DNA of 35,441 nt. It comes from a virus. Lineage: Duplodnaviria > Heunggongvirae > Uroviricota > Caudoviricetes. The translations under genes were made by a program, and so were the position numbers. The stretch is from the IMG/VR virus record IMGVR_UViG_2529293216_000013; one strand, given 5' to 3'. The notes below the pieces were generated by a model. That model did not search any database and had not been told where the DNA came from. It saw nothing but the letters and a program-made list of their open reading frames with translations. This document shows, piece by piece, positions 8,275 through 25,587 of the stretch (within the stretch, counting starts at the first letter, position 1; each line of letters begins with the position of its first letter).

Positions 8275-8613
8275 CTATTTCCCTGAATTTACGACGAAAC
8301 TGTTCGAGCGGGCTGAAGCACTCATGCTCATAGCCTTCGCGGAGGTAGATAACCCGTTGTGTTTCCGGTTCCCAACGAATGACTCTGACGGGCACTCCGT
8401 AGTGATCTTTGAACCAGCGGTTAACTTGTCGCAAAGGACTGTCTCCTTTTGCCTGTTGAAATCACCCACAGCCCACTCTGCAAAGCTGTGGGTTACAATT
8501 TCCCTGTCACCTGGTACATTCACTGCATAGCAATACTCCACCTTCGCTTTTCCACCCGGTACAGGAAGTGCAATCAGTTGCGAGCGACGGTAGTGTGTTG
8601 TTAAACTGTTCAT
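8275..8613 (-). CDS. Hypothetical ORF between CII-like and O-like genes; frame ambiguous
   Basis: 112 aa ORF in one frame; a second minus-strand frame (8255..8434) has AAGGAG plus TTG start and a more protein-like product ([58 protein letters not shown]) ending in overlap with the O start. Confidence 0.3.
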
Positions 8614-9161
8614 GCGTTAGTTTCTCCACAGTCACGACACGCCACGGCGCCCGGAGCTGCACACTCGCGGGCGTCATTACTTTCTGAAATGCAAAAAATT
8701 TTGTAGACCAGTGCTGCATGCTCCTGCAGCTTCGAAATTGAGAGGTACAGCTCGTCGTTAATTGCTGTCTTCTCATGCGGTTCCACTACACCGTCTTCAA
8801 TTGCTGAACGAATCTGTTTTGAATAACTGCCGATCTGTTCAATGACCTCCAGCAGGCGTTGGTTGATATCGGCGTTGTCCACATCCTCGACATCAGGAAG
8901 AGACACAAAGACGCCATTTGCAGACTGCGCCACAGCGTCAGCAATGAAGTGAGTTCCACCAGCACGTTGCAAAATCATTGCCCATCCCAGCGGGAAAATC
9001 TGATCGCCATCGGCACGAAGGCGGTTAAATAATGCGTTCTCTGTTACATCCAGCCAGTCAGCAGCTTCAGCGTACCCCCCCGGCAACGCTGCGATAGTTT
9101 TTCTGACAGCTTTCACGTACCACTCAGGCTGTTTTTCTACTTTCCAGTGATGCTTACCCAC
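8610..9161 (-). CDS. CII/YdaT-like prophage regulatory protein (putative)
   Basis: 183 aa; immediately downstream of the Cro-like gene with overlapping start/stop; family assignment from memory only. Confidence 0.4.
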
Positions 9162-9414
9162 GGTTCACCTCCTGTTCCTGTGGTTTAAACCCATTCTGGT
9201 TTTGGCTAGATTGAAAACGTGCCGGATAAAGAATCTGCATTTCGCTGACTTCACCCTTAAAAAAATTGGCTAAACGTTCTGCAAGCTCGATAGATGGAAT
9301 CTGCTCCAGCCTCTCAATACGACTCAACGTCGCTGGATTGACTTGAACACCCGCAGCAACATGCTGCAAAGTGAAACCATGCGCCTTACGCACATTTCGT
9401 AATGGTGATTGCAT
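9154..9414 (-). CDS. Cro-like HTH repressor (XRE family)
   Basis: 86 aa; HTH GFTLQHVAAGVQVNPATLSRIERLEQIPSIELAERLANFF; divergent from cI across an operator-rich 97 bp spacer. Confidence 0.65.
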   Translation of the reverse strand: MQSPLRNVRKAHGFTLQHVAAGVQVNPATLSRIERLEQIPSIELAERLANFFKGEVSEMQILYPARFQSSQNQNGFKPQEQEVNRG

Positions 9415-9424
9415 ACGCCCTCCA

Positions 9425-9495
9425 AATATTGCGCGTTATGCATGTTATTTCACGCAATTATTTTGCGCAAGTTGATTTGCTTATCACGCAATAAA
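9425..9495. promoter_or_regulatory. Right operator/promoter region (OR-like) between cro-like and cI
   Basis: Repeated half-site motifs ATTGCGCG, CACGCAAT (twice) and palindromic TTGCGCAA in the divergent intergenic region. Confidence 0.5.
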
Positions 9496-9511
9496 GAAAT
9501 GTAATAAACGC

Positions 9512-10204
9512 ATGAACATAGGAAACCGAGTCAGACAACTTCGCCAAGCGAAGAACATGAAAATCGCCGATCTCGCTGAAGCGATAGGAGTAGATGCGGC
9601 GAACATCTCGCGCTTAGAAACGGGTAAGCAAAAACAATTTACCGAACAAACACTGAGTAATATTGCCAAGAGCTTAGGTGTTGATATTGCTGATCTCTTT
9701 ACCTCTGCCCACAAAAGTAATACTGTATATAAAAACAGTAATAATGAGGATGTTGCGCAGGTGAAGGATGTGTTCCGTATTGAAATGCTGGATATCAGTG
9801 CCAGTGCGGGAAATGGCCTTATCCAGGGCGGTGATGTCATTGATGTGATTCATGCCATCGAATACAGAACTGATAATGCTGTATCAATGTTCGGCGGACG
9901 ACCAGCCAATCACATCAAAGTTATCAACGTTCGTGGGGACAGTATGTGTCCAACCATTGAGCCAGGAGATCTCATCTTCGTTGATGTCAGCATCAATCAG
10001 TTTGATGGTGATGGTATATATGTCTTTGGTTTTGATGACAAAATATACGTTAAAAGACTTCAAATGATTCCTGACAAACTGCTGGTGATTTCTGATAACC
10101 AGATTTACCGTGAATGGGGAATTACTAGCGAAAACGAACACCGATTCATGGTCTTTGGAAAGGTCTTAATCAGTCAGTCGCAAACCCTTAAGAGACATAA
10201 TTAA
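9512..10204 (+). CDS. cI: CI-type prophage repressor (HTH plus S24 LexA-like autopeptidase domain)
   Basis: 230 aa; N-terminal HTH (MKIADLAEAIGVDAANISRLETGK); C-terminal S24 motifs VRGDSMCPTIEPGDLIFVD and YVKRL (Ser/Lys dyad). Confidence 0.85.
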   Translation: MNIGNRVRQLRQAKNMKIADLAEAIGVDAANISRLETGKQKQFTEQTLSNIAKSLGVDIADLFTSAHKSNTVYKNSNNEDVAQVKDVFRIEMLDISASAGNGLIQGGDVIDVIHAIEYRTDNAVSMFGGRPANHIKVINVRGDSMCPTIEPGDLIFVDVSINQFDGDGIYVFGFDDKIYVKRLQMIPDKLLVISDNQIYREWGITSENEHRFMVFGKVLISQSQTLKRHN

Positions 10205-10223
10205 CCTCAATATCCCATCCATC

Positions 10224-10248
10224 GGCCACCGAAAGGTGGCTTTTTATT
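10224..10248 (+). terminator. Rho-independent terminator downstream of cI
   Basis: GGCCACC-gaaa-GGTGGC hairpin followed by TTTTTATT. Confidence 0.65.
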
Positions 10249-10256
10249 ACCTATAA

Positions 10257-10295
10257 ATTTGCATATCTCGCAAATACCACTTGCATATCTCGCAA
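10257..10295. promoter_or_regulatory. Left operator-like tandem dyads (OL-like)
   Basis: Two copies of TTGCATATCTCGCAA (inverted TTGC...GCAA arms), sharing the TCxCGCAA core with the OR-region sites. Confidence 0.45.
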
Positions 10296-10502
10296 TTTAA
10301 TTTTATCTTTTATTCCAGACCAACTACAGGATTACAACAAAATCTGGTTGCAACACGGTGCATGTGTCGTAAGCAGTCAGTAAATGTCAAAAACGAACAG
10401 GCAGGACGCCCACGAAGTAGCCGCCTGGGGCATATGAAGTCCAGGATGATTCGTTGAGTCATGTTGTGCCACTAGGCACTCATGTTAAAGCAGGTGTATG
10501 AA

Positions 10503-10778
10503 ATGAAAGTCCAGATTTTAAACAATAACTGTGAAGTCGTTTGGTCATACGACATAGCCGCCCCTGTAGATCAGAGCGGCGATAGCTGGACCAATGGGAA
10601 ACATCAGATTATGGCTGGAGTTGTGTTCTCTTTACGCCGTGCTTTAGAACAGGCTGAAGTCTTTCCATCAGACCCTGAATGGAAATGGCCTTTTTCTATT
10701 TGTCCAAATTCGGAGAGTACATTTCAGAAAATTGGTCAGAAAGTCGCACTCGAAGAGCATCAGCCAACTGTTTCCTGA
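10503..10778 (+). CDS. Hypothetical protein downstream of cI (rex-position cargo?)
   Basis: ORF with AGGTG Shine-Dalgarno before ATG at 10503; no recognisable motif; 3' end overlaps a convergent ORF. Confidence 0.3.
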   Translation: MKVQILNNNCEVVWSYDIAAPVDQSGDSWTNGKHQIMAGVVFSLRRALEQAEVFPSDPEWKWPFSICPNSESTFQKIGQKVALEEHQPTVS

Positions 10779-10941
10779 TTTTTTCAGGTAACTCGTCGGC
10801 ATCGCAGAAACAACAACGCTCGATCATGTTGAAAGCCGATTCGTAGAACTGTTTTTGCTGAGTGTCGCTGAGACAGGAAAAGAGCGACGTTACGATGATT
10901 TTATTAATTGCATTATCAAGTTCTTTTTCATCAAAAGTCAT
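10696..10941 (-). CDS. Hypothetical small protein (81 aa)
   Basis: Protein-like composition (MTFDEKELDNAINKII...); convergent 83 bp overlap with the previous ORF, so one of the two may be spurious. Confidence 0.3.
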   Translation of the reverse strand: MTFDEKELDNAINKIIVTSLFSCLSDTQQKQFYESAFNMIERCCFCDADELPEKIRKQLADALRVRLSDQFSEMYSPNLDK

Positions 10942-11442
10942 TTGATTTTCCTTTTATGTATACGGGCTTAAAAGGATACCACCGAGCCTGAAGTGGTGAA
11001 AAGACAGGCACATAACAGCTAAGTATTTTCAACCAGAGAGAATCCTTAGCGTTGTGGTGAATGCGGCTCAGCGCACGCGGGTTAAGGTTGAGGCTGACAG
11101 TCGACCTTCTGTGGATACCCACCCGCCTGGTGTGCAACCTTCGCCAGGCACCGGGAGGCACCCGGCACCACAACTTTATGCTGTGTGTAGTCTTAGCGGT
11201 ACCAGCTTGTACCCTTGCTTCCGGCTGGTACCGTCCTTTTTACAAAACAGAGAAGAGCATCACCGGACGACGGGCTCATAACCCAATCCATCCGGGCGGC
11301 TGCCACCGCAGGTGTATAGCGCGGCGATTTTTTTGATACCGATTTGCATTTCATTTGATACCGCTGAAAAACGCCGATACGCAACTTATTTGATACTAAA
11401 TCGGCGCTTTTCTTTTGAGTTTTAGAATGAGTTTTTAAGCGC

Positions 11443-12180
11443 TCATTCACTCTCTTTCAAACCAGTTTTAACTGTTTGTGGTTTTGGGTAAGGCTGGACT
11501 TTGAATAGCTTTGTGTTGAGGCGTTTTCTGGCCCTCTTGTTCAGAAACCGGATGTAACGAAACTGTCGGAACTTATGAACACTGGCTCTGTCAATATTAG
11601 CCCTCAGATGTTCACCTCGTTGTCCGCCTCGTTTAATGGCATTCCTGCAAATCTCGTGATACCACTCGCCATCAAGTTCATAGAATATTGATTCATGGCT
11701 GCCTACATAATCAAAATTGCTTGCCTGATACACGACACCAAGACAGCCACAACGCTCATCTGCAAACGACTGAACCCACTGTACCTGCGGATAAAGCTGC
11801 CTGATTAGCTTGAGCGCGTAACTGATTGCCCTTGATTCGGAGTTTCTCGGCATACAGTCATGCAGCCATAGCCGGTTAAGCTCCATATATTCTCGGTTCT
11901 GCGTACCCGTTACGACGCGTGCACCACTGTTTGGGTTAAGGGCGTAACCCCATTGCATTACGCCAACAAGTTCCCGTTCTGAAAATATGCCCAGATGAAG
12001 GTAGGAGTTATTTACGAAACGGTGGCTGTAATGTTTATTGACGATGACCAGTCTGGCCAGCCAGCAACTTATTGTCTCAACCCGCAACTCACGGGAGCCA
12101 TAACCAACGATATTGTCGTTATAGCGAATAAGTTCAGGCGTGCTGATGATTCGGGATGTGACTTGCTTTCTGTTCCCCAC
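11443..12180 (-). CDS. mom: Mom-like DNA modification protein (GNAT-fold acyltransferase family), putative
   Basis: 245 aa; GNAT-like C-terminal signature [12 protein letters not shown]; start overlapped by a Com-like zinc-finger gene exactly as in phage Mu com/mom. Confidence 0.5.
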
Positions 12181-12334
12181 GACAGGATTTCCTTGTGTAT
12201 GTGGGGTGCTCTGTGGCGCTCGGAGATGTGATTTGATTGAGGGTTTTACAGCGCGGACATTTTACTTCCAGATAACTGAAACTGGCCCGTGCCAGTAGCT
12301 TATTGCAGTGTCGGCACCGTATGTTTCGATACAT
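12134..12334 (-). CDS. com: Com-like zinc-finger translational activator
   Basis: [34 protein letters not shown]...EHPT resembles Mu Com (IRCKNCNKLL...IRCPRCK...EHPT) as recalled; AGGAGG upstream of the internal ATG; 3' end overlaps mom start. Confidence 0.6.
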
Positions 12335-12364
12335 GACCGCATAACCTCCTGCTTTGTTGTTGAT

Positions 12365-12400
12365 GCCTTTCTCATGCAATCGATCGACAAAAACGATCGA
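12365..12400. promoter_or_regulatory. GATC-rich putative com/mom promoter region
   Basis: Two CGATCG sites (GATC at 12371..12374 and 12384..12387) plus TCGAT repeats within about 30 bp upstream of com. Confidence 0.3.
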
Positions 12401-12448
12401 TTCGATTTGTTTAATTGATACAACAAATAGATTGAAAAGTCATCAACA

Positions 12449-12913
12449 ATGATTCAGGGAGGTGATTATTTACTTAAAGAAAACGAAGAGTTAGGTGGTG
12501 AAAACGATCATAAAATGATCATTTTATTGACTTTTTATACAGTGAAGGTAGGATCACGCGTATATGTAGTATGTTTCAAATCAACAGGATACTACATAAA
12601 AGTGAAACCCAGCATAGCTGGAACTATGCTGGGTCAATCTGTAAAAACTTGCATCAATGCTTTACTTCGAGCTCGTGGCGTATCCTATGATATTCCCCGG
12701 TCTCCTGTAAAGCAGAGATGCATAAAAAGGAGATCTTTATCATGGATGAAAGAGCCTGTTTGCCCTGCCTGTAAGACTCCCTTACAGCTCATCTATCGCC
12801 GTTCTCGATCTCAAAATGGCAAGACATACAAACCCAAAAATGCTTCCTGTTTCAGGATGCTGATATGTCCTGCCTGTTCTCCCAGGAGGGAAAATACACA
12901 AAACGTGCATTAA
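12449..12913 (+). CDS. Hypothetical protein with C-terminal double CPAC zinc-ribbon motif
   Basis: ...VCPACKTPLQ...(26 aa)...ICPACSP; N-terminal part is low-complexity and may not be coding. Confidence 0.25.
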   Translation: MIQGGDYLLKENEELGGENDHKMIILLTFYTVKVGSRVYVVCFKSTGYYIKVKPSIAGTMLGQSVKTCINALLRARGVSYDIPRSPVKQRCIKRRSLSWMKEPVCPACKTPLQLIYRRSRSQNGKTYKPKNASCFRMLICPACSPRRENTQNVH

Positions 12914-16687: not shown

Positions 16688-17715
16688 AAGTGCAGTAGTT
16701 CAAAAAACAGATTATCTGAATAAATATATGATGATTTTGTCTTTTCAACAAAAACAAGGTGAAATAATGGAGCTTATTAACGTAAAACGATATTACCCGG
16801 AACACAAACCCTATGGTGAGGATGTTCAGTATTTCCAGAGTGAGGACGGAAGGGATTTTTATGAATCTATCCCGCTTTTCACAAAGAAATACAAACTCTG
16901 TATTTCGCCTGTAACGGGTATTATCTGCTCTGTTGCTGAAGATGTCTCTGCTTTATATCCGGCAGGTTTTACTGTTGTTGAAGTGGACGAACTGCCGGAA
17001 GGTGTGAATATTGACGGTAACTGGCAGTTTTCTGATGGCCTGATATCAAAGGTGCCGGTAAACTGGAAGACGGTTGCTGAAAAGCGCCGCTCATCGCTGC
17101 TCCAGGAAGCCAACGAAACTGTGGATGACTGGAAAACGGAATTAAAACTGGACATGATTAGCGATGAAAATAAATTACAGCTGACGCGCTGGATGGCGTA
17201 TATCCGACAGCTTAAAGAAATGCACTTTAATGATATTGCCAGTGAGGGGCATTACCAGGCGATTCCCTGGCCGGAAAAACCGGAATAATTCAGAGGGTGC
17301 ATTCAGCACCCTTTTCTGTGGTTTACACTGAACTTACCGTTCTCCAGGCATTATTAATATAAATCTGAACCGGGCGATAATAGACCCCACCGATATTGTC
17401 CGCAGACCGGGAGCCGGTTTCCTGCACGTTAATTCCGGAAAGCATACAACCGGAAGGTGCGCTGTAATTCCATGACATTTCATTGCCTCCGGGTGAATGA
17501 TAGCTCTGTGCTCCAAGCTGAACATTCTGTACATACCGGCCATCTGCGGTTGACTGCGTCATTCCTGACGTGATGTTGATATCCAGCGTTCCGTCAAAAG
17601 GAACACCATTAATATTTCTTGGGGTGGCGAGTCTGTTTGCTGCCACGGCGGTTCCACCCGATGGCAGGGCATCAGCAGCCTTATTTACCGTTTCCCGTAA
17701 ACCAACGTTTAAGAA
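16318..17715. mobile_element. Invertible tail-fibre segment (G/P-segment-like) between inverted crossover sites
   Basis: gix/cix-like sites AAACCTTCGGTTTACGGGA near 16320..16343 and inverted partial copy near 17692..17712; both lie inside tail-fibre reading frames at the conserved ...GLR(D/E)TVN(R/K)AA(N/D)ALP... junction. Confidence 0.55.
16767..17288 (+). CDS. Tail fibre assembly protein (Tfa/U-like)
   Basis: Start MELINVKRYYPEHKP with Shine-Dalgarno; C-terminus ...LTRWMAYIRQLKEMHFNDIASEGHYQAIPWPEKPE typical of Tfa chaperones. Confidence 0.7.
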   Translation: MELINVKRYYPEHKPYGEDVQYFQSEDGRDFYESIPLFTKKYKLCISPVTGIICSVAEDVSALYPAGFTVVEVDELPEGVNIDGNWQFSDGLISKVPVNWKTVAEKRRSSLLQEANETVDDWKTELKLDMISDENKLQLTRWMAYIRQLKEMHFNDIASEGHYQAIPWPEKPE

Positions 17716-17745
17716 AATGCAGAGATTATGGCTAACTGGCATCAT
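17323..17745 (-). CDS. Alternative tail fibre variable C-terminal segment (Sv')
   Basis: Shares ...LATPRNINGVPFDGTLDINITSGMTQSTADGRYVQ... with Sv, then diverges; ends ...VYYRPVQIYINNAWRTVSSV. Confidence 0.55.
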   Translation of the reverse strand: MMPVSHNLCIFLNVGLRETVNKAADALPSGGTAVAANRLATPRNINGVPFDGTLDINITSGMTQSTADGRYVQNVQLGAQSYHSPGGNEMSWNYSAPSGCMLSGINVQETGSRSADNIGGVYYRPVQIYINNAWRTVSSV

Positions 17746-17772
17746 CCCCGGTTTTTACTCAGGGGAATGCTC

Positions 17773-18327
17773 ATGCTTATTGGCTATGTCCGCGTATCAA
17801 CAAATAACCAGAATACGGAATTACAGCGTAATGCGCTGGAGTGTGCAGGATGTGAGCTGATTTTTGAAGACAAGATAAGCGGTACAAAGTCCGACAGACC
17901 AGGACTGAAAAAGCTGCTCAGGACATTATCGGCAGGTGACACGCTGGTGGTCTGGAAACTGGACCGACTGGGGCGCAGTATGCGGCATCTTGTCGTGCTG
18001 GTGGAGGAGTTGCGCGAACGAGGCATCAACTTTCGTAGTCTGACGGATTCAATTGATACCAGTACCCCAATGGGGCGCTTTTTCTTTCATGTGATGGGTG
18101 CCCTGGCTGAAATGGAGCGTGAACTGATTGTTGAACGAACAAAAGCTGGACTGGAAGCAGCTCGCGCACAGGGACGAATTGGTGGACGTCGTCCCAAACT
18201 TACACCAGAACAATGGGCGCAGGCCGGGCGATTAATTGCATCAGGCGTTCCTCGCCAAAAGGTGGCGATCATCTATGATGTTGGTATATCGACACTGTAT
18301 AAGAAGTTTCCGGTCGGAGATAAATGA
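17773..18327 (+). CDS. pin: Serine recombinase DNA invertase (Pin family), copy 2
   Basis: Start MLIGYVRVSTNNQNTELQRNALECAGCELIFEDK...; roughly 80% identical to copy 1, opposite orientation. Confidence 0.9.
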   Translation: MLIGYVRVSTNNQNTELQRNALECAGCELIFEDKISGTKSDRPGLKKLLRTLSAGDTLVVWKLDRLGRSMRHLVVLVEELRERGINFRSLTDSIDTSTPMGRFFFHVMGALAEMERELIVERTKAGLEAARAQGRIGGRRPKLTPEQWAQAGRLIASGVPRQKVAIIYDVGISTLYKKFPVGDK

Positions 18328-18387
18328 AACCGTAGCACGTCGTATGCAAGAAGATCGTGCTGCGGTTTATGCTTATCACTTAAAGAC

Positions 18388-19257
<870 letters not shown>

Positions 19258-19337
19258 CTAAGTCTTTGAATTTACATAGTACAAAAAAGATACTTTTCCT
19301 CATAATGTGAATTAATTTTATGTTTCGTTTGATGATT

Positions 19338-19403
19338 GGACCGGTCTCGAAAACCGGAGTAGGGGCAACTCTACCGGGGGGGCAAATCCCCCTCTCTCCG
19401 CCA
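19338..19403 (+). tRNA. Degenerate 3' fragment of tRNA-Ser (serU-like, anticodon CGA); probable prophage att scar, not a functional tRNA
   Basis: GGACCGGTCTCGAAAACCGGAGTAGGGGCAACTCTACCGGGGGGGCAAATCCCCCTCTCTCCGCCA matches the tRNA-Ser(CGA) 3' two-thirds as recalled, with a damaged T-loop (GGGCAAATCC instead of GGTTCAAATCC); 5' acceptor/D-arm absent. Confidence 0.6.
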
Positions 19404-19976
19404 CTTTATCAATGACTTATCTCCCGACTTCCCGCCTTGCTTTTCCTAAACAGAACAATCGTAGAATATTCTTGAAGGGTTAGATCGTCACTGTTTTCTG
19501 TTCGATACTGTGACATTCAGCACTTGATTCGCTATGGATCTGACAGGAAGGTTTCGAGCGAAAATCTGCAGTTATTCAGTCGTTTTCTTATCGGTCACCA
19601 TTATTCTTTTAGACATTGATCCTACAAAGCTGCCGCAAAGTTGGTGGTGGGAACTGAAGTTGCGTAGAGAAGGGGTCAATACCCGGAGGCAAACATGGGC
19701 TGGCAAAAGTGTAGCGGTATTAGGCGCAGCTATTTAGCCTAGTTATGTTTTATGAAAACTTGATATCATATAAGTGTCTTACTTATTGGCTGTAAATAAG
19801 TTTTTCCTAAGGAATTGTTTCTTGAGTATCATTTGTAACTGTAACGGAATTTATAATCCTTTGCTTTATTGTTACGGTATTTTTTATCACACCCTATTTT
19901 TAGTGGTTTTTTATACTGAAGTTTGGCAAAGTGAACTTTATATACATATACTTCATCCTGGTTTCAGTTAAATTGG

Positions 19977-20729
19977 GTGGATGATATGGCAACTACATGT
20001 TCAGTTATATTGATTTTGGAGTCCTTTGATGTTTATTTCGGAAAAGAGAGTGTGTTTCTGGAGAGAGGTTCATCTGTACTTGTCGACTCTAGCTCTAGAG
20101 ATTTTTTCCTGACATATCCTGAAAGAGTGATAGTGGCGGATTTTGGCGCTGAGTTTATTAGTCGCTATTTGAAAGCTAATAACTTAAGGGATATTTCTGA
20201 TTGTAGGGAATATCCATCTTATTTAAAAATAAACTTTGCTGACTTCAGTTTAATTAAAGGATTAATTAGTTGGGCTAATCACTGTGCTGAATACATAGAA
20301 ATTTTTGATGAGTCTATTGCTTTTACATGTCTCTCTGCATTTTCTTCTGAAAAACAATTTGGAGTATTTCTGTTTGGATGTTTGAAAAGCACAGGGGCTA
20401 AAGTTAAAACGATTATTCATACGGATTTATCTGCACCATGGCGTCTTAAGGATATATCATCAAGATTATATCTCAGCGAAAGTTTACTAAAGAGGAAATT
20501 GAAAGAAGAGGGGGTATCATTCAGTAAGATCATACTTGATGAGAGGATGCAAATGGCTGAATATTTACTCAGCACTCGTTGTTATCCTATTAGTAAAGTA
20601 GCTAAGGTCTGTGGTTATGCCAGTGTCTCATACTTTACTTATGTATTTAGACGTTATTTTGGTGTTTCTCCAAGTCAATACTCTCAGAGGAGTTCAGAAA
20701 GTAAAATTCTTACTCACCAGGGAATCTGA
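19977..20729 (+). CDS. AraC-family transcriptional regulator (AppY-like, AT-rich)
   Basis: 250 aa; C-terminal dual HTH WRLKDISSRLYLSESLLKRKLKEEGVSFSKIILDERMQMAEYLL...VAKVCGYASVSYFTYVFRRYFGVSPSQY resembles AppY as recalled. Confidence 0.7.
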   Translation: MDDMATTCSVILILESFDVYFGKESVFLERGSSVLVDSSSRDFFLTYPERVIVADFGAEFISRYLKANNLRDISDCREYPSYLKINFADFSLIKGLISWANHCAEYIEIFDESIAFTCLSAFSSEKQFGVFLFGCLKSTGAKVKTIIHTDLSAPWRLKDISSRLYLSESLLKRKLKEEGVSFSKIILDERMQMAEYLLSTRCYPISKVAKVCGYASVSYFTYVFRRYFGVSPSQYSQRSSESKILTHQGI

Positions 20730-20770
20730 TCATTGTTCTTGCCCCCTTATTTCCAGACAGGGGGTGTATC

Positions 20771-21214
20771 TTAAGTTAACGTTACCCGCTGACGTCGATA
20801 TTCTCGCGGAGAGCGATAACCCAACGCACTGTGCGGATGGTTTTCATTGTAATGTTCGATCGCCACTGCAAGATTATGCAATGCCGTTCTTACATTCGGT
20901 TTCGGCATGAACGCGATATAGTCTTCCTTCATCGTTTTCACGAACCTTTCTGCAATTCCATTACTCTGAGGACTGCTGATTGCCGTTGTGCAGGGCTCCA
21001 GATTCAACTCTCTGGCGAACTGCCGTGTTTCATGCGCTCTATACGCTGAACCGTTATCTGTCAGCCACTGGATGGACTGTTCCGGTACTTTATCGCCAAA
21101 GCGTTTTTCTATCGCTCCTAACATGACATCCTGCACTGTCGCTTTATCGTAACCTCCCGTGCTTGCGGCCCAGTCTATGGCTTCACGATCGCAACAGTCC
21201 AGGGCGATTCATCT
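20771..21214 (-). mobile_element. IS3-family (IS2-like) transposase remnant: C-terminal DDE-domain portion only
   Basis: ...[50 protein letters not shown]...[14 protein letters not shown] matches IS2 OrfB C-terminus; no ATG, frame closed upstream by a stop near 21215. Confidence 0.7.
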
Positions 21215-21483
21215 GGGCCAATCCTCGCTCATAACAGGCATTCACTTCAGTCATGGCAGAAAGGTATGCATGCTGGAGAAGTCGTGAAAGAAAAGAAGAC
21301 TGCTGCGCCGTTTGTCGTCACGTTTATCTTCATTGGCTATGCAAGTCGTAATACAAGGTGGGACAAAACTGAGACACATAAGGCCTCGCAATGGCTTGCA
21401 AGGCTTTACATGTTTTGATGTGGTGGGACGTGTGAGCGCAGTGTTGATGGGGTAATGCTTTGAATTAGAAGCGGATTCTTATA

Positions 21484-21529
21484 ATTCGTAATGCGAAGGT
21501 CGTAGGTTCGACTCCTATTATCGGCACCA
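21484..21529 (+). tRNA. 3' fragment (about 46 nt) of tRNA-Thr (thrW-like); attL core of the P4-like element
   Basis: ATTCGTAATGCGAAGGTCGTAGGTTCGACTCCTATTATCGGCACCA matches the thrW 3' half as recalled; upstream sequence does not match the tRNA 5' half. Confidence 0.65.
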
Positions 21530-21691
21530 TCTCAACTTCCTCAAACGTCCGTATTAGTCCATAAAATCTCTGATTTATAACATTTTTTATTCTTTTAAGT
21601 CCATAGTAGTCCGTAACCATCCAGTAGAATCCGGTACTGAATGTGTATAGGATTGTGTATATGTTCCTGTTCGGTCTGGATTCCTATACAC

Positions 21692-22873
21692 ATGCCTTTA
21701 AACGATATGCAGATTCGCCGCGCTAAGCCTGAAGCTAAAGCCTATACATTTGGAGATGGGCTAGGGTTGTCATTACTTATAGAACCTAATGGAAGCAAGA
21801 GTTGGCGGTTCCGCTATCGCTATGCCGGCAAACCCAAAATGATCTCGCTTGGTGTTTACCCAACGATCACCCTTGCCGATGCTCGTTCCCGTCGTGATGA
21901 AGCTCGAAAACTTGTGGCAGAAGGAAAGAACCCTAGTGAGGTTCGAAAAGAGCAAAAGCTAGCTATGCAAACAGAGTCAGAGAACGCCTTCGAAAAGATA
22001 GCCAGAGAGTGGCATCAACTTAAATCTGCTAAATGGTCGGCGGGATATGCATCAGACATCATGGAAGCGTTTAAGAACGACATTTTTCCTTATGTCGGAA
22101 CAAGGCCTGTGGGAGAGATTAAACCGCTAGAGCTGCTGAACGTTCTGCGTAAAATTGAGAAACGTGGTGCGTTGGAGAAAATGCGCAAAGTGCGGCAGCG
22201 TTGCTCCGAAGTGTTTCGCTACGCAATTGCAACGGGTAGGGCGGAGTACAATCCTGCGGCTGATCTCTCCAGCGCTCTCGAAGTACACCAATCCAATCAT
22301 TTCCCATTCCTAAAAGCTGATGAGATACCTGATTTTCTACGTGCCTTAGAGGGTTACTCCGGGAGTAAGCTTGTCCAGATAGCCACGAAATTACTGATGA
22401 TTACGGGTGTGAGAACCATCGAATTACGCGCGGCATTATGGCAAGAATTTGATCTGGATAACGCTATTTGGGAAATTCCTGCTGAAAGGATGAAAATGCG
22501 TAGGCCACATCTTGTGCCCTTATCATCTCAAGCGGTAGATTTACTCAATGAACTCAAGATCATGACAGGGAACTATCGTTATGTTTTTCCAGGGCGGAAC
22601 GATCCGAATAGGCCAATGAGCGAAGCGAGTATAAATCAAGCCATTAAGCGTATTGGGTATGGAGGAAAAGTCACTGGACATGGTTTTCGTCATACCCTTT
22701 CTACAATCCTGCATGAGCAAGGTTTTGAGAGTGCTTGGATTGAAATCCAGTTGGCTCATGTAGATAAAAATTCTATTAGGGGGACTTATAACCATGCTCA
22801 ATATTTTAGTGGAAGGAAGTCTATGATGGACTGGTACAGTAATTTGATATTTGAAAGACTAAAAAGGAGTTAA
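21692..22873 (+). CDS. int: P4-type tyrosine integrase
   Basis: N-terminus MPLNDMQIRRAKPEAKAYTFGDGLGLSLLIEPNGSKSWRFRYRYAGK...; C-terminal catalytic region HGFRHT...; adjacent to tRNA fragment. Confidence 0.85.
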   Translation: MPLNDMQIRRAKPEAKAYTFGDGLGLSLLIEPNGSKSWRFRYRYAGKPKMISLGVYPTITLADARSRRDEARKLVAEGKNPSEVRKEQKLAMQTESENAFEKIAREWHQLKSAKWSAGYASDIMEAFKNDIFPYVGTRPVGEIKPLELLNVLRKIEKRGALEKMRKVRQRCSEVFRYAIATGRAEYNPAADLSSALEVHQSNHFPFLKADEIPDFLRALEGYSGSKLVQIATKLLMITGVRTIELRAALWQEFDLDNAIWEIPAERMKMRRPHLVPLSSQAVDLLNELKIMTGNYRYVFPGRNDPNRPMSEASINQAIKRIGYGGKVTGHGFRHTLSTILHEQGFESAWIEIQLAHVDKNSIRGTYNHAQYFSGRKSMMDWYSNLIFERLKRS

Positions 22874-22876
22874 TTT

Positions 22877-23293
22877 GTGTCTCAACCACTTTCGGAAATA
22901 TTGACATGGGATGATGAACAATGGGAGGTATTTGTCCATGATTGGCTTATTGTCTGTAAATCAGATGATTACCCGTGGAGCGAACGTTTGGGAGGAGCTG
23001 GAGATAAAGGTAGAGACGTTGTTGGATATAAATCGGATCCTAACGTAGAAGGTTATTCTTGGGATAATTATCAATGCAAACTGTACAAAAAAAGTTTAGG
23101 GTTCTCTGATGTTGTAGTTGAGTTTGGAAAACTTATCTATTTTACTCTGAATGGTGATTATCCCATCCCTCAGAAGTACTTTTTTGTGGCACCCTATGAT
23201 TTATCTACTACATTTTCTAATTTATTGAAAAATAAAAACGAGCTTAAAAAAGCAGTCCTTGATTCATGGGATTCAGCAATTTCAAAAAAATAA
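22877..23293 (+). CDS. Mrr-like PD-(D/E)xK nuclease domain protein, 5' segment of candidate defence effector (LmuA-like); frame breaks in A7 tract
   Basis: GTG start with AAAAAGGAG Shine-Dalgarno 4 nt after int stop; motif GGAGDKGRDVVGY...YQCKLYKK resembles Mrr catalytic core GDGGIDG...QCKRYK; about 28% GC. Confidence 0.5.
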   Translation: MSQPLSEILTWDDEQWEVFVHDWLIVCKSDDYPWSERLGGAGDKGRDVVGYKSDPNVEGYSWDNYQCKLYKKSLGFSDVVVEFGKLIYFTLNGDYPIPQKYFFVAPYDLSTTFSNLLKNKNELKKAVLDSWDSAISKK

Positions 23294-23883
23294 CTAAAAA
23301 GATTGATATTCCATTAGATGATGAAATAAAAAAATATATTGAGGATTTTGATTTTAGTATTTTTTACTCTCTACCCTTATCATTGATTTTAAATGATATT
23401 GCAAATACACACCTTTATTTTAAGTACTTTAACGAGCTGTATGTCGTGAGAATCCCTCCAAATGAAATTCCAACATACAATTCAAAAAAAGAGTCTGTAT
23501 ATGTTAATGCACTGCTTCAAGCCTATTCAGAGCATGGAAATAAAACTTATAGTTCTTTCTTAGAGCTTGATGATCCATACAGACGACACTTTAATAATAG
23601 TAGAAATGATTTTTATTTTGCATCTTCGCTTGAGGTTTTTGTCCGCGAAGTATTTAAAGATGATGTATTCAAAGCATTGAAATGTTACATTTCATCTTCA
23701 ATTGAACCCGTCTTTTATGAAGACCATAATTATGCATTTATTAGGTGTAATGCAGTCTTGAAGCAGGCTGTTCTGACACCAATTGCACATTCAGTACTAT
23801 CAAAAATATGTGAAGCAAATGATAAAAAAGGAATATGCCATCATTTGGTTAATGATGGTGAAGTAATTTGGACGGTGAGATAA
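23266..23883 (+). CDS. 3' segment of the same candidate effector gene (C-terminal domain, function unknown)
   Basis: Frame is +1 relative to previous ORF and fuses with it if the A7 tract at 23284..23290 is read as A8 (...DSWDSAISKKITKKIDIPLDDEIKK...). Confidence 0.45.
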   Translation: MGFSNFKKITKKIDIPLDDEIKKYIEDFDFSIFYSLPLSLILNDIANTHLYFKYFNELYVVRIPPNEIPTYNSKKESVYVNALLQAYSEHGNKTYSSFLELDDPYRRHFNNSRNDFYFASSLEVFVREVFKDDVFKALKCYISSSIEPVFYEDHNYAFIRCNAVLKQAVLTPIAHSVLSKICEANDKKGICHHLVNDGEVIWTVR

Positions 23884-24341
23884 TGGTTAGAATTTATAAT
23901 TCAAGTTTAGAAGTGGCATGTCGAATGGCGAAAGTGCTCGTCGCTATTTATCCTTCTTCATTAAGCCTTGAACGGCTTATTTGTTTTGATTTTATTTTAG
24001 TAAATCTTAAGGATTTTTTACCTGAAGAGATTAGTCTTCATCCTCCAATACCCCGTAGAGATGCTCAGTTAGCCCTAAAACGAGAGATTGTTTTAGAATC
24101 ATTGGCTTTGTTGCAAGGCTATGAACTAGCCTCAAAAATTTATACACATCGTGGTTTTGTATATAAAGCTTCTGAAAAAACATATGCATTTACAAATTCT
24201 CTACATAATGAATATGTTGCGCAGATGGAGCATAATATAAATTTGGTGGTTAAGTTATATAGTGATATTCCTGATGAGCAGTTGCAATCAATTATAAAAA
24301 ATAAAATTGGCAAATATGATATGGAATTTAATTATGAATGA
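23883..24341 (+). CDS. Small middle component of candidate defence operon (LmuC-like position)
   Basis: ATG overlaps upstream stop (TAATG); 3' end overlaps next gene start (ATGAATGA); AT-rich; no recognisable motif. Confidence 0.45.
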   Translation: MVRIYNSSLEVACRMAKVLVAIYPSSLSLERLICFDFILVNLKDFLPEEISLHPPIPRRDAQLALKREIVLESLALLQGYELASKIYTHRGFVYKASEKTYAFTNSLHNEYVAQMEHNINLVVKLYSDIPDEQLQSIIKNKIGKYDMEFNYE

Positions 24342-24966
24342 CAATTTTTTTACGTTCAGAAAAATAAAGGTAACCGGATTCAATAAATTAGATGCTATAA
24401 TTGAATTTGGTTCTAAATTGACTATTTTATATGGTGGTTCTGACTCTGGAAAAACATACATATATTATTTGATTCGATATTTATTAGGGAGTGAAAAACT
24501 AAAAAATAAAGATATCGATCATGCTCAAGGTTATGATTTAGCCTATCTGGAATTTAATTTTCAAGGTAGGGTAATGACAATTGAGAGGTCTCTTCAGGAT
24601 AGCGCCCATTACAGATTATATGATTCGAGCATTGAAAATGTTAGTGAAGCTAATCTGTTGATGGTTTTTTCCAAAAGTGCTTCGTCTAAAAAGAGTTTTT
24701 CATCATACTTTTATGGTAGGTTGAATTTCAAAGAGGCTAAAGTAAGAACAAACTTAAGTAATACTCTTCATAAATTTAATCTTAATAATGTTTTTGAATT
24801 TTTTTGTATTGATGAATTAAGAGTGTTAACTGAGAAGTCGTTAATTCTTTCTGATATTCCTAGCGAGGAGACAAAAAGAAAGTCTGAATTTAAATTCCTT
24901 TTAACTCAGAGAGATGATACTAACTCCTTAGCAGAAAAACCAAATAAAAAAGCAAGATATTTTTAA
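24334..24966 (+). CDS. SMC/Rad50-like ABC ATPase, N-terminal head segment with Walker A (LmuB-like)
   Basis: FRKIKVTGFNKLDAIIEFGSKLTILYGGSDSGKTYIYYLIRYLLG (Walker A GGSDSGKT); ends at in-frame TAA 24964..24966, after which the same frame stays open. Confidence 0.5.
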   Translation: MNDNFFTFRKIKVTGFNKLDAIIEFGSKLTILYGGSDSGKTYIYYLIRYLLGSEKLKNKDIDHAQGYDLAYLEFNFQGRVMTIERSLQDSAHYRLYDSSIENVSEANLLMVFSKSASSKKSFSSYFYGRLNFKEAKVRTNLSNTLHKFNLNNVFEFFCIDELRVLTEKSLILSDIPSEETKRKSEFKFLLTQRDDTNSLAEKPNKKARYF

Positions 24967-24996
24967 AAAAATCAAATTGCAAATATTTATGAGGAA

Positions 24997-25587
24997 TTGA
25001 AAGCGCAATTAATTTATCCTGAATATGATCAAGTCATTGTTTCAAGAGAACTTGAGAAAGTAGAGCAAGATATTGAATCATCGAAAGATATATTGAAAGG
25101 TATTGTTGATGCACTTGATGATAAGAAGCAATTATTAAAAGAGTTAAGTGATGAATTATATTCAATCAGTGACAGGGAAAAATACTTATCATTACTCATT
25201 GAAAGATTTAGTCTTCTTAAAGACCAATACTTTATAGATCTACAAAGAATAGATGTTGTATCACAGGCGAATTTCTATTTAAATAATTTTGCAGATATTT
25301 ATTGTGAGTTCTGTAATACACCGCAAAAAAAAGAAAATGAAATATCATATGATGATTGTTTTTTGTCGTGTAATGCAGAAAAATTGAAAATCAAAAGCCA
25401 GCTGAAAGGATTAATTGAATCAATCGGATCTAATGTTCGCGAACATGAATTAATTATGTTAAGAAAAAATGATGTTAATGAAATTTATCAATCAGAAAAA
25501 AGTGATTTTAAGACGTTAGAAGATAAAAATATAAAACAATACATTCATCTCTTGAATCACTTTATGAATATAAAGACAATCTTTTAA
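24997..25587 (+). CDS. Coiled-coil segment of the ATPase with CxxC hook-like motif (same frame as previous segment, no ATG)
   Basis: Heptad-rich sequence; YCEFCNTPQKK...C...C near the middle; frame continuous with 24334..24966 apart from one TAA. Confidence 0.45.
   Translation: MKAQLIYPEYDQVIVSRELEKVEQDIESSKDILKGIVDALDDKKQLLKELSDELYSISDREKYLSLLIERFSLLKDQYFIDLQRIDVVSQANFYLNNFADIYCEFCNTPQKKENEISYDDCFLSCNAEKLKIKSQLKGLIESIGSNVREHELIMLRKNDVNEIYQSEKSDFKTLEDKNIKQYIHLLNHFMNIKTIF

Follow-up and report, generated by a model that had tools for sequence, protein, structure and literature searches.

The GC-rich, hairpin-bearing stretch at 10950-11440 of the Caudoviricetes record IMGVR_UViG_2529293216_000013 (IMG/VR; 35,441 nucleotides (nt), hereafter the window) is, as judged from sequence comparison, the place where two prophages are joined, and holds two separate elements rather than one. 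On its left, the GC-rich core at 11013-11241 (+) is predicted to be a divergent “subtype 2” member of the STnc100/EcOnc27/PasD family of prophage RNAs. On its right, a Mu-like prophage begins at 11313. We consider it very probable that both parts, the STnc100-family RNA module and the Mu-like right end, are correctly identified. An earlier note on this DNA had described one non-coding unit of about 0.5 kb that could encode a small RNA (sRNA) or be the remnant of a decayed gene. The stretch is real and is largely explained as a sub-threshold, oddly placed member of a known prophage RNA family beside a Mu-like end. Taken as a whole, our best explanation, a prophage junction combined with a cis-acting leader RNA, is evenly poised between being right and being wrong.

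The junction and its two sides

Similarity searches assign window positions 1-11312 to an SfV-like prophage and the sequence from 11313 onward to a Mu-like right end. SfV homology stops at 11315 and Mu-like homology starts at 11313, which splits the single 0.5-kb unit that had been proposed. Across 10900-11315, the identity of the window to Shigella phage SfV is 98.8%, and to many O157:H7 chromosomes it reaches 100%; this match always ends at 11315. When the junctions of three genomes are aligned with the window and SfV, the Mu-like sequences have a common terminus, 5'-TGTATAGCGCGGCGATTTTTTTGATACC, and SfV diverges exactly there; the TGT at 11313-11315 is common to SfV and the Mu-like end by chance. 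The G+C content is 0.53-0.62 only across 11050-11350, and 0.33-0.47 in the flanks, with 0.33-0.39 across 10850-11000 and 11350-11450. The description of 10950-11440 as GC-rich therefore holds for 11050-11350 and not for the AT-richer sequence around it.

None of 5,426 complete Escherichia coli genomes and no phage-collection record covers at least 80% of 10900-11460, and the SfV-like/Mu-like junction thus seems to be specific to the source strain. The Mu-like insertion site lies 70 base pairs (bp) past the terminator of the RNA. In SfV and FRIK944, the genes run cro, cI, terminator, orf33, RNA region, orf32/yfdP, yfdQ, yfdR ... xis, int, tRNA-Thr, and ST64B follows the same order (cI, orf33, RNA, orf32/yfdP, yfdQ, yfdR ... 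xis, int). The prophage-in-prophage junction cuts the SfV-like early-left operon short just before orf32.

The RNA module matches the Rfam model of STnc100. The covariance-model check that the earlier note had proposed gave a full-length match to RF02076 at 11021-11243 (+), covering model positions 1-206, with 43.0 bits (E = 1.1e-7); the match surfaced in an E-value scan rather than in a gathering-threshold scan. The three hairpins described in that note are P4, P5, and the terminator of the STnc100 model, and all are present. GCCTGG...CCAGGC pairs 11125-11132 with 11142-11149 (P4), CCGGG-aggca-CCCGG pairs 11151-11155 with 11161-11165 (P5), and the plus-strand terminator pairs GGTACCAGC (11197-11206) with GCTGGTACC (11224-11233) around a 17-nt loop, with TTTTT at 11237-11241. 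The minimum free energy (MFE) fold of the window RNA reproduces the STnc100 secondary structure (P1, P2, P4, P5, and the 3' terminator hairpin). For 11013-11245, the fold reaches -93.7 kcal/mol, against -74.9 ± 4.3 for 200 dinucleotide shuffles, none of which was as stable (z = -4.35).

Two sequence motifs also tie the window RNA to this family. It carries GUGGUGAAU at 11054-11062, where the family 5' motif is (U)GGUGAAU, and an exact 22-nt core, CACCGGGAGGCACCCGGCACCA, at 11149-11170. The GGUGAAU motif and the 20-nt core ACCGGGAGGCACCCGGCACC are common to the window RNA and more than 200 relatives. Exact matches to the 22-nt core occur in at least 120 IMG/VR contigs. Exact matches to the 20-nt core occur in at least 120 genome contigs, from hosts that include Escherichia, Shigella, Salmonella, Klebsiella, Enterobacter, Citrobacter, Kosakonia, Raoultella, Pantoea, Erwinia, Rahnella, and others. 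A few core matches in Streptomyces and in some metagenome-assembled genomes look like chance or contamination and were left out of later counts. Among relatives gathered by the 5' motif, the exact 22-mer is found in 73 of 112, while the others are mostly one flanking base off. Since the core is kept in relatives collected in this way, both strands of P5 are conserved in sequence and not merely in their pairing.

The Mu-like right end (attR-type) occupies 11313-11442. It starts with 5'-TGTATAGCGCGG (5'-TGTATAGCG at 11313), continues with three TTTGATAC repeats, and runs into the 3' flank of mom. The three TTTGATAC(C/T) repeats of the earlier note are present, ending at 11339, 11361, and 11396 (spacings of 22 and 35 nt); they are not part of the RNA element, and belong to the end of a separate prophage whose terminus is at 11313. 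In full, they read GC(N)7-8TTTGATAC at 11324-11339, 11346-11361, and 11381-11396, and are predicted transposase end sites. The mom gene lies at 11443-12180 (-) (Pfam Mom PF25680, E = 4e-77) and com at 12134-12379 (Com zinc ribbon PF10122, E = 3e-12). The repeats, together with mom and com, identify this sequence as the right end of a Mu-like transposable prophage.

The insertion pattern of this element is that of a transposable phage. From 11313 onward, the sequence has matches in hundreds of E. coli genomes, each time beside a different flanking gene (fbpC, hyfE, an amidohydrolase gene, J, nadB, and others). The terminus TGTATAGCGCGG is thus joined to unrelated DNA in fbpC, hyfE, and the amidohydrolase gene, and to SfV-type DNA in the window. 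The other end of a complete Mu-like copy reads 5'-TGTAACC, followed by three inverted TTTGATAC repeats and by MuA- and MuB-type genes (a Mu-type transposase and a MuB-type ATPase). The flanks of the fbpC insertion (L301 4716-4720 and L134 1500-1503), which read ...GTCACG|TGTAACC and ...TACA|CGCATCG, show no clean 5-bp target-site duplication such as Mu-type transposition would be expected to leave, and the window holds one end only.

Likeness to Mu attR, with its R1-R3 MuA sites by mom, is extensive. Both have a 5'-TG terminus, three end repeats of which the first two are 22 bp apart, mom and com right inside the end, different insertion genes in different genomes, and MuA/MuB-type genes with three inverted repeats at the opposite end. 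The window element differs in that its repeat, TTTGATAC, departs from the MuA-site consensus of Mu, and in that its mom DNA is 71% identical to mom of Mu and D108. Furthermore, window positions 17684-30885 are 99% identical to 306.8-320 kb of O157:H7 Sakai (the tail of Sp1 together with the P4-like prophage Sp2), so that no more than a segment of the Mu-like prophage appears to be present here. The window is therefore a mosaic in which SfV-like, Mu-like, Sp1-tail, and P4-like parts are combined. The minus-strand terminator that had been placed just after mom is weak: the sole candidate pairs 11366-11378 with 11400-11412 around a 21-nt loop that holds the third repeat, and a consensus terminator scan found no minus-strand terminator after mom.

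Architecture of the RNA module

The RNA is predicted to form a four-way junction closed by a helix between its 5' and 3' strands, P1, and to contain a pseudoknot and a near-invariant core. The comparison set comprised 53 non-redundant representatives, ST64B, and the P1-like phage JL22, and 34 sequences were aligned with MAFFT for an RNAalifold consensus. P4 and the pseudoknot were analysed sequence by sequence, because the MAFFT alignment fails to hold P4 in structural register. The consensus of the 34 relatives contains P1 (GGUG/CACC, with outer pairs that vary), P2, P5, and a P3 that is short; 8 of its 20 pairs have two-sided changes. The comparative check named in the earlier note thus returned two-sided changes in P1, P2, P3, P4, and the pseudoknot. 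With a core homologous to STnc100 and helices kept through compensatory changes, its suggestion of a small RNA is supported.

The module (11013-11241, +), as delimited by RF02076 and the MFE fold, is made up of the P0 hairpin, the pseudoknotted domain, a linker, and an intrinsic terminator. P0 (11018-11050) pairs GCUAAG (11018-11023) with CUUAGC (11045-11050), abuts P1, and is present in the MFE fold. Its equivalents, GGUAAGAGCAUUG / CAGUGCUCUUUCC, in JL22, sal3, L069, L089, and lambda keep their pairing through two-sided changes. The 5' strand of P1, GUUGUGGUG (11051-11059), pairs with CACCACAAC (11166-11174) to close the domain, and is followed by an AAU junction (11060-11062). The outer pairs of P1 vary in the alignment between GC, AU, and GU and between CG, UA, and UG (columns 7-150: GC 18, AU 12, GU 3). 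In the copy of phage P1, GUGGUG...CACCAC becomes GCGGUG...CACCGC, a change from U-A to C-G within the helix.

Helices P2 and P3 vary in the same manner. P2 (11062-11075) consists of UGCG / CGCA with a GCUCAG loop, includes the family-conserved GCG, and is present in the MFE fold; its CG pairs change to GC or UA in 6-9 of the 34 sequences (columns 21-29: CG 25, GC 6, UA 3). P3 (11077-11126) pairs GCGGGU (11077-11082) with ACCCGC (11121-11126) and encloses the 5' strand of the pseudoknot along with a variable insert. Alignment pairs 34-36 / 99-101 of P3 are of CG/UG/GC and GC/AU/UA types, and the helix has counterparts in L021 (GCGGAA/UUCCGC) and in the phage P1 copy (CGGGGAA/UUCCCCG). P4 (11125-11149) has a loop, 11133-11141, that bears the 3' strand of the pseudoknot. 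Each relative folds a P4 hairpin that ends right at the core, with many different stem sequences. The core itself (11150-11169) consists of P5 and the start of the 3' strand of P1.

Downstream of the domain, a single-stranded linker, UUUAUGCUGUGUGUAGUCUUAG (11175-11196), is unpaired in the MFE fold. Its UGCUGUGU(G)AAGUC-like motif is kept in ST64B, sal3, L021, L059, L069, and L089 despite differing flanking hairpins. The intrinsic terminator (11197-11241) has a 10-bp stem, a spacer of 2-3 nt (UCC) after it, and a U5 tract at 11237-11241. It corresponds to the 3' hairpin of the Rfam alignment and is present in the MFE fold, but was missed by the consensus terminator scan because its loop exceeds 8 nt.

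Covariation across the family argues for the pseudoknot, in which AAGGUUG (11084-11090) would pair with CAACCUU (11135-11141) in the P4 loop. In nearly all copies, the strand that follows P2 is complementary to the P4 loop, and about 38 different sequence pairs occur (e.g., UGGUUAU/AUAACCA, AGACUGACAAA/UUUGUCAGUCU, CCAGUC/GACUGG, and UGCCAGGUC/GACCUGGCA). Compared with shuffled loops, the duplex energies of 48 non-identical cases average z = -2.1, and p < 0.05 in 26 of these, where about 2.4 would be expected. The window pair has a dG of -15.4 against -8.9 ± 2.4 for shuffled loops (p = 0.017). Duplex energy replaced an earlier test based on the longest contiguous complement (own 7.2 vs. null 5.9; on repeat, own 5.7 vs. 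null 4.1), because shared CCAG-type strands blurred its signal. The STnc100 structure line in Rfam has no pseudoknot, and the published PasD/STnc100 consensus comes from RNAalifold, whose folds cannot include one.

The same strand has another potential partner. In the MFE fold, the partner of AAGGUUGA, the 5' strand of the pseudoknot, is the nearby UCGACCUU (11103-11110; 11084-11110 overall) and not the P4 loop. This modelled pairing is a possible alternative conformation and is only partly kept in ST64B. Three other candidate features were set aside. A long-range pairing of the linker sequence UGCUGUGUG with upstream CACAUAACAGC is plausible in the window and is not kept in ST64B or L069. A boxA/nut-like UGCUCUU(U), which resembles rrn boxA, is the 3' strand of P0, pairing with GGUAAGAGCAUUG and showing compensatory changes in JL22, sal3, and L089. 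A sigma-54 promoter at the UGCUCUU motif was dropped because the GG-to-GC spacing is inconsistent among copies.

Some relatives also carry a potential competitor of P1. In five canonical E. coli-type copies (L020, L043, L061, L068, and L073), the P1 3' strand reads CACCAUG, and CAUG(G/A)UG follows two bases on. This sequence copies the P1 5' strand and could compete with P1; a conserved GAUACAGA motif comes after it, ahead of the terminator.

The pattern of conservation makes it highly improbable that the stretch is a decayed or frameshifted protein gene, or an ordinary terminator with chance hairpins. Open reading frames (ORFs) of 75-91 amino acids (aa; 75, 91, 80, and 85) do cross the region, RefSeq lists a “frameshifted hypothetical protein” in FRIK944, several phage records list hypothetical proteins, and a minus-strand ORF matches phrog_3651 (E = 4.5e-28). 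However, no ORF across the stretch matches a Pfam family, in agreement with the earlier view that they are implausible. The PHROG matches (two minus-strand ORFs) are partial, fall in families with no assigned function, and extend over nothing but the conserved DNA, on either strand; we take these ORFs to be mis-called. The ST64B terminator hairpin is 22 nt longer, not a multiple of three, a change that would break any reading frame and that leaves the hairpin intact. Conservation tracks base pairing, including that of the pseudoknot; variation is paired or compensatory; the element recurs in hundreds of unrelated contexts with changed flanks; and the fold is more stable than its shuffles. For annotation, this means that there is no hidden gene, and that SfV-type records label an STnc100-family RNA only as a “terminator” or as spurious hypothetical proteins.

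Genomic setting and possible mode of action

The window copy lies inside the early-left operon of its prophage. A cI-type repressor gene is found at 9512-10204 (Pfam), with two exact TTGCATATCTCGCAA copies downstream of it at 10259-10295 and related TTGC-N7-GCAA sites in the cI-cro gap (9429-9491). These are probably the OL and OR operators of the prophage repressor. The RNA module is about 740 nt downstream of the TTGCATATCTCGCAA operators, which places it within the early-left (pL) operon, in sense. The usual site of the family is a late-region “moron” position between Q/pR' and the lysis genes; the window copy is not found there and instead sits after cI. A consensus promoter scan found no plus-strand sigma-70-like site in 10200-12500.

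Canonical copies of STnc100 (RF02076; EcOnc27 and sRNA103 in enterohaemorrhagic E. coli (EHEC)) differ from the window copy in several respects. They are generally located between Q-type genes and holin, endolysin, or NanS-p genes, on the same strand. A near-consensus sigma-70 promoter (TTGACx-17-TAAATT) usually lies directly upstream, with a start at the first G of GUGGUGAAU, and a terminator-like hairpin follows within 320 nt (median 56 nt) in 189 of 211 copies (90%). Canonical copies read GUGGUGAAUCCCCCUGUGCGGAGGGGC where the window copy reads GUGGUGAAUGCGGCUCAGCGCACGCGGG. Unlike them, the window copy has an extra P0, an upstream block with hairpin H(-1), a P2 of UGCG/CGCA rather than CCCC/GGGG, no detectable adjacent promoter, and a place after cI rather than in the Q-lysis interval or after stx2B. 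It resembles them in its GGUGAAU motif, core, P1, P2, P4, P5, and 3' terminator, in its location in an Enterobacterales prophage, and in lying on the same strand as the surrounding operon. Sequence comparison shows that Sakai Sp1 and K-12 CPS-53 lack the subtype-2 element, so published EHEC and K-12 data sets miss the window copy.

Subtype-2 relatives occupy varied sites. They are found after a cI-type repressor gene (L089), in the leader of tciA-ban in a P1-like phage, as a moron between portal and terminase genes (L021, L059, and L069), and between co-directional ORFs in several genera. A terminator is absent from 9 of 20 of them, including JL22, where the copy is upstream of tciA. Terminator-less copies also occur in Lelliottia, Pseudescherichia, Scandinavium, Buttiauxella, and Klebsiella, and lie 30-120 nt ahead of, or between, co-directional ORFs. 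Throughout the family, the conserved neighbouring gene families are on the same strand as the RNA, for example holin in 68 of 68 cases, endolysin in 60 of 60, NanS-p in 64 of 64, orf32-like in 26 of 26, and a Q-type gene in 44 of 45.

The STnc100 domain is repeated in some genomes. Two or three tandem copies, 220-560 nt apart, occur in some Superficieibacter, Citrobacter, and Enterobacter genomes and in viral contigs (L214 6374-6916, L255 3814-4737, L209 3540-3779, and L082 7214-7502). In the tandem pair that was inspected, L082, each copy has its own terminator.

We tentatively favour, at slightly less than an even chance, a window RNA that is primarily a cis-acting, co-transcribed leader with an STnc100-type sRNA as a by-product. 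Since no promoter of its own is detectable, the RNA would be made during rightward transcription from pL, after the repressor has come off the TTGCATATCTCGCAA operators. The domain would fold co-transcriptionally, and its invariant core would dock a conserved host component. It may then act in cis, either on the behaviour of polymerase at or after the terminator, or on the processing or stability of the message. Polymerases that stop at 11241 would set free an RNA whose 3' end has the complete STnc100 architecture, and this RNA could also bind Hfq and act in trans, like its relatives. We favour a cis-acting leader because terminator-less copies lie inside operons, because the family is co-oriented with lytic genes, because the hairpin is invariant in sequence, and because no promoter was found. 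That both strands of P5 are invariant points to a conserved partner rather than to variable mRNA targets.

The late-operon leader of lambda, immediately after tR' (L296 985-1215; lambda J02459 ~44785-45015), counts in favour of a cis role, as it contains a decayed subtype-2 homologue. This copy reads CACAACAGGTAAGAGCATTG ... CAGTGCTCTTTCCGTTGTGCTGAAT with a tail of ...GGCCTTTTACAC. It has lost the core, and keeps P0, the P1 5' strand GUUGUGCUGAAU, and a terminator-like tail, GGCCUUUUACAC. In a broader sense, the pR'-6S RNA-tR' leader of lambda and StxS resemble the window RNA as short phage-leader RNAs with an intrinsic terminator upstream of lytic genes, and the terminated leader product StxS is reportedly itself a regulator. 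The lambda 6S RNA region, however, has no homology to the domain, the invariant core is missing from lambda, and Q works through a DNA site and not by way of this RNA.

Several observations weigh against a cis-acting leader. Canonical relatives are discrete genes, and have been seen in EHEC as RNAs of about 160-210 nt (PMC5331693). EcOnc27 crosslinks to Hfq (PMC4104026, PMC12711010), and PasD has partners detected by ligating and sequencing interacting RNAs (RIL-seq) (bioRxiv 10.64898/2026.05.13.724894). The promoter, the terminator, and Hfq binding of the canonical copies are what a trans-acting sRNA looks like. The window copy itself keeps a terminator and, before it, a conserved unpaired stretch that could be an sRNA seed. 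A weak candidate promoter upstream of H(-1), around GGGCTTAAAAG at 10964-10974, is common to L021 and L069. Efficient termination in lysogens argues against a factor-independent antiterminator. Lastly, the window RNA does not reach the RF02076 gathering score of 47, and the Rfam scan at gathering threshold returned nothing in the region.

The main rival, which we judge unlikely though not markedly so, is a stand-alone, trans-acting, Hfq-dependent sRNA gene of the STnc100/EcOnc27/PasD family, carried as a prophage moron. Here the 5' domain would only stabilise the RNA, the unpaired UGCUGUGUG would be the seed for host or phage mRNAs, and the U-tail of the terminator would bind Hfq. Family membership speaks for it, as do the terminator with its U5 tract, the conserved unpaired linker, and the terminator-like hairpin close behind most canonical copies. 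STnc100 has 11 predicted copies in EDL933, which are transcribed; a Northern blot confirmed one of them (PMC5331693). EcOnc27, which crosslinks to Hfq and converges with AsxR in the pR' moron site, overlaps the copy that follows stx2B (PMC4104026). Variants of the copy next to stx2 are associated with haemolytic uraemic syndrome (HUS), and its overexpression raised fimZ and espA mRNAs (PMC12711010). STnc100/EcOnc27 has also been detected in outer-membrane vesicles (PMC12370729). PasD1 and PasD2, sRNAs of enteropathogenic E. coli prophages, are likewise prophage-encoded and Hfq-associated, have RIL-seq targets, and share structure and ancestry with STnc100 according to Zhu, Shabalina, and Storz (bioRxiv 10.64898/2026.05.13.724894). 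Compared by description only, they differ from the window copy in adjoining Q and LpxR genes in the late region and in a published consensus without a pseudoknot.

Four features of the window copy and its family fit this sRNA gene poorly. No promoter-like site precedes the window copy. Subtype-2 relatives without a terminator lie inside operons, and the conserved domain must therefore have some role for which release as an sRNA is unnecessary. The family is co-oriented with its neighbours, whereas AsxR-type prophage sRNAs at the same sites are antisense (PMC4104026). The highest conservation is in a base-paired hairpin and not in the putative seed. In the cited STnc100-family literature, no mechanism has been established.

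A specific form of the cis idea is that the RNA mediates processive antitermination or Rho resistance, as put does in HK022, but we consider this improbable. As it emerges, the domain would attach to RNA polymerase or to a Nus factor, allowing read-through of the terminator at 11197-11241, and of later ones, into orf32...xis-int. The position of the window copy is what such a role would lead one to expect: it is in the early-left operon, past pL, and an intrinsic terminator comes directly after it. Elsewhere, the family occurs in terminator-rich late-operon leaders and in the tciA-ban leader of P1, in strict co-orientation with neighbouring genes, and the core is invariant across Enterobacterales, as for a ligand of a host machine. 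To our knowledge, SfV-type phages have no recognised N protein. HK022 put and HK639 putL are likewise structured leader RNAs of early operons in lambdoid phages, upstream of terminators, and are ligands of the host's RNA polymerase (PMC9378689). However, put is about 70 nt long with two stems, and the window element is a four-way junction of about 125 nt with a pseudoknot.

The window RNA was found to have neither sequence nor motif similarity to either put element. In the HK022 genome, the core is absent and the best fuzzy matches are random; the annotated putL-like RNA of HK639 (L133 9188-9313) is unrelated to the window RNA and has no core. HK639 carries putL and, elsewhere, a separate canonical STnc100 copy. 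Moreover, canonical copies have strong promoters, constitutive in appearance, ahead of lysis genes, where an antiterminator that needs no factor would kill lysogens. Accumulation of terminated RNAs (PMC5331693) also speaks against antitermination, and the boxA-like UGCUCUU is a strand of helix P0.

The favoured cis-acting leader has a wider form, to which we give only a small chance, somewhat above that of antitermination. The STnc100 domain, a pseudoknotted four-way junction that resembles a cloverleaf, may be an unrecognised class of cis-acting phage leader RNA and not primarily an Hfq sRNA. If so, the invariant hairpin would dock RNA polymerase, a Nus factor, or the ribosome, and would control elongation, termination, or processing of lytic operons. 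Such a class would be present in hundreds of Enterobacterales prophages and in P1, and decayed in lambda, and the “sRNAs” of EHEC and Salmonella would be terminated leader transcripts.

Four features described here were not found in the cited STnc100-family literature: the well-supported pseudoknot; the hairpin core that is invariant on both strands across many genera; the strict co-orientation with lytic operons; and the terminator-less intra-operon subtype related to the window copy. The pseudoknot, core, and subtype are useful leads rather than the discovery of a new kind of element. The new features make the partner of the domain and its action in cis directly testable. This matters because STnc100/EcOnc27 adjoins stx2, and variants there have recently been tied to HUS risk.

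Neighbouring sequences

A conserved 35-nt block (10978-11012, +) immediately precedes the RNA module, and a minus-strand gene (10696-10941) starts about 40 nt away from it. It consists of hairpin H(-1), in which ACCAC (10978-10982) pairs with GUGGU (10993-10997), followed by GAAAAGACAGGCACA. The block shows 94% identity to lambda 34394-34428, as well as to P22, HK620, and Shiga toxin 1 (Stx1) phages; in P22, the annotated sieB promoter comes right after it. In Lelliottia, Pantoea, and Buttiauxella genomes, it is again found ahead of subtype-2 modules.

Between pL and the RNA module are two small, conserved phage genes: 10482-10778 (+) (phrog_3195, 98 aa) and 10696-10941 (-) (phrog_3311, 81 aa). 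They converge with an overlap of 83 nt. The minus-strand gene, the one next to the conserved block, holds the position of sieB in P22.

The last conserved SfV-type sequence before the junction is a hairpin at 11263-11295 (+), CCGGA...UCCGG, that encloses GGGCUCAUAACCC. This enclosed sequence is identical to the anticodon stem-loop of tRNA-Met(CAU). A tRNA here was rejected, as the hairpin is an anticodon-arm look-alike only: ARAGORN finds no cloverleaf at this site, and no tRNA or tmRNA in the window. The hairpin aligns with ST64B and with Klebsiella phage Chronis, where it is just past tRNA-Asn, and its outer stem covaries (CCGGA/UCCGG vs. CCUGA/UCAGG).

Further along the window, two other RNAs reach the Rfam gathering level: isrK at 29407-29484 (71.9 bits) and C4 antisense RNA at 29553-29640 (84 bits).

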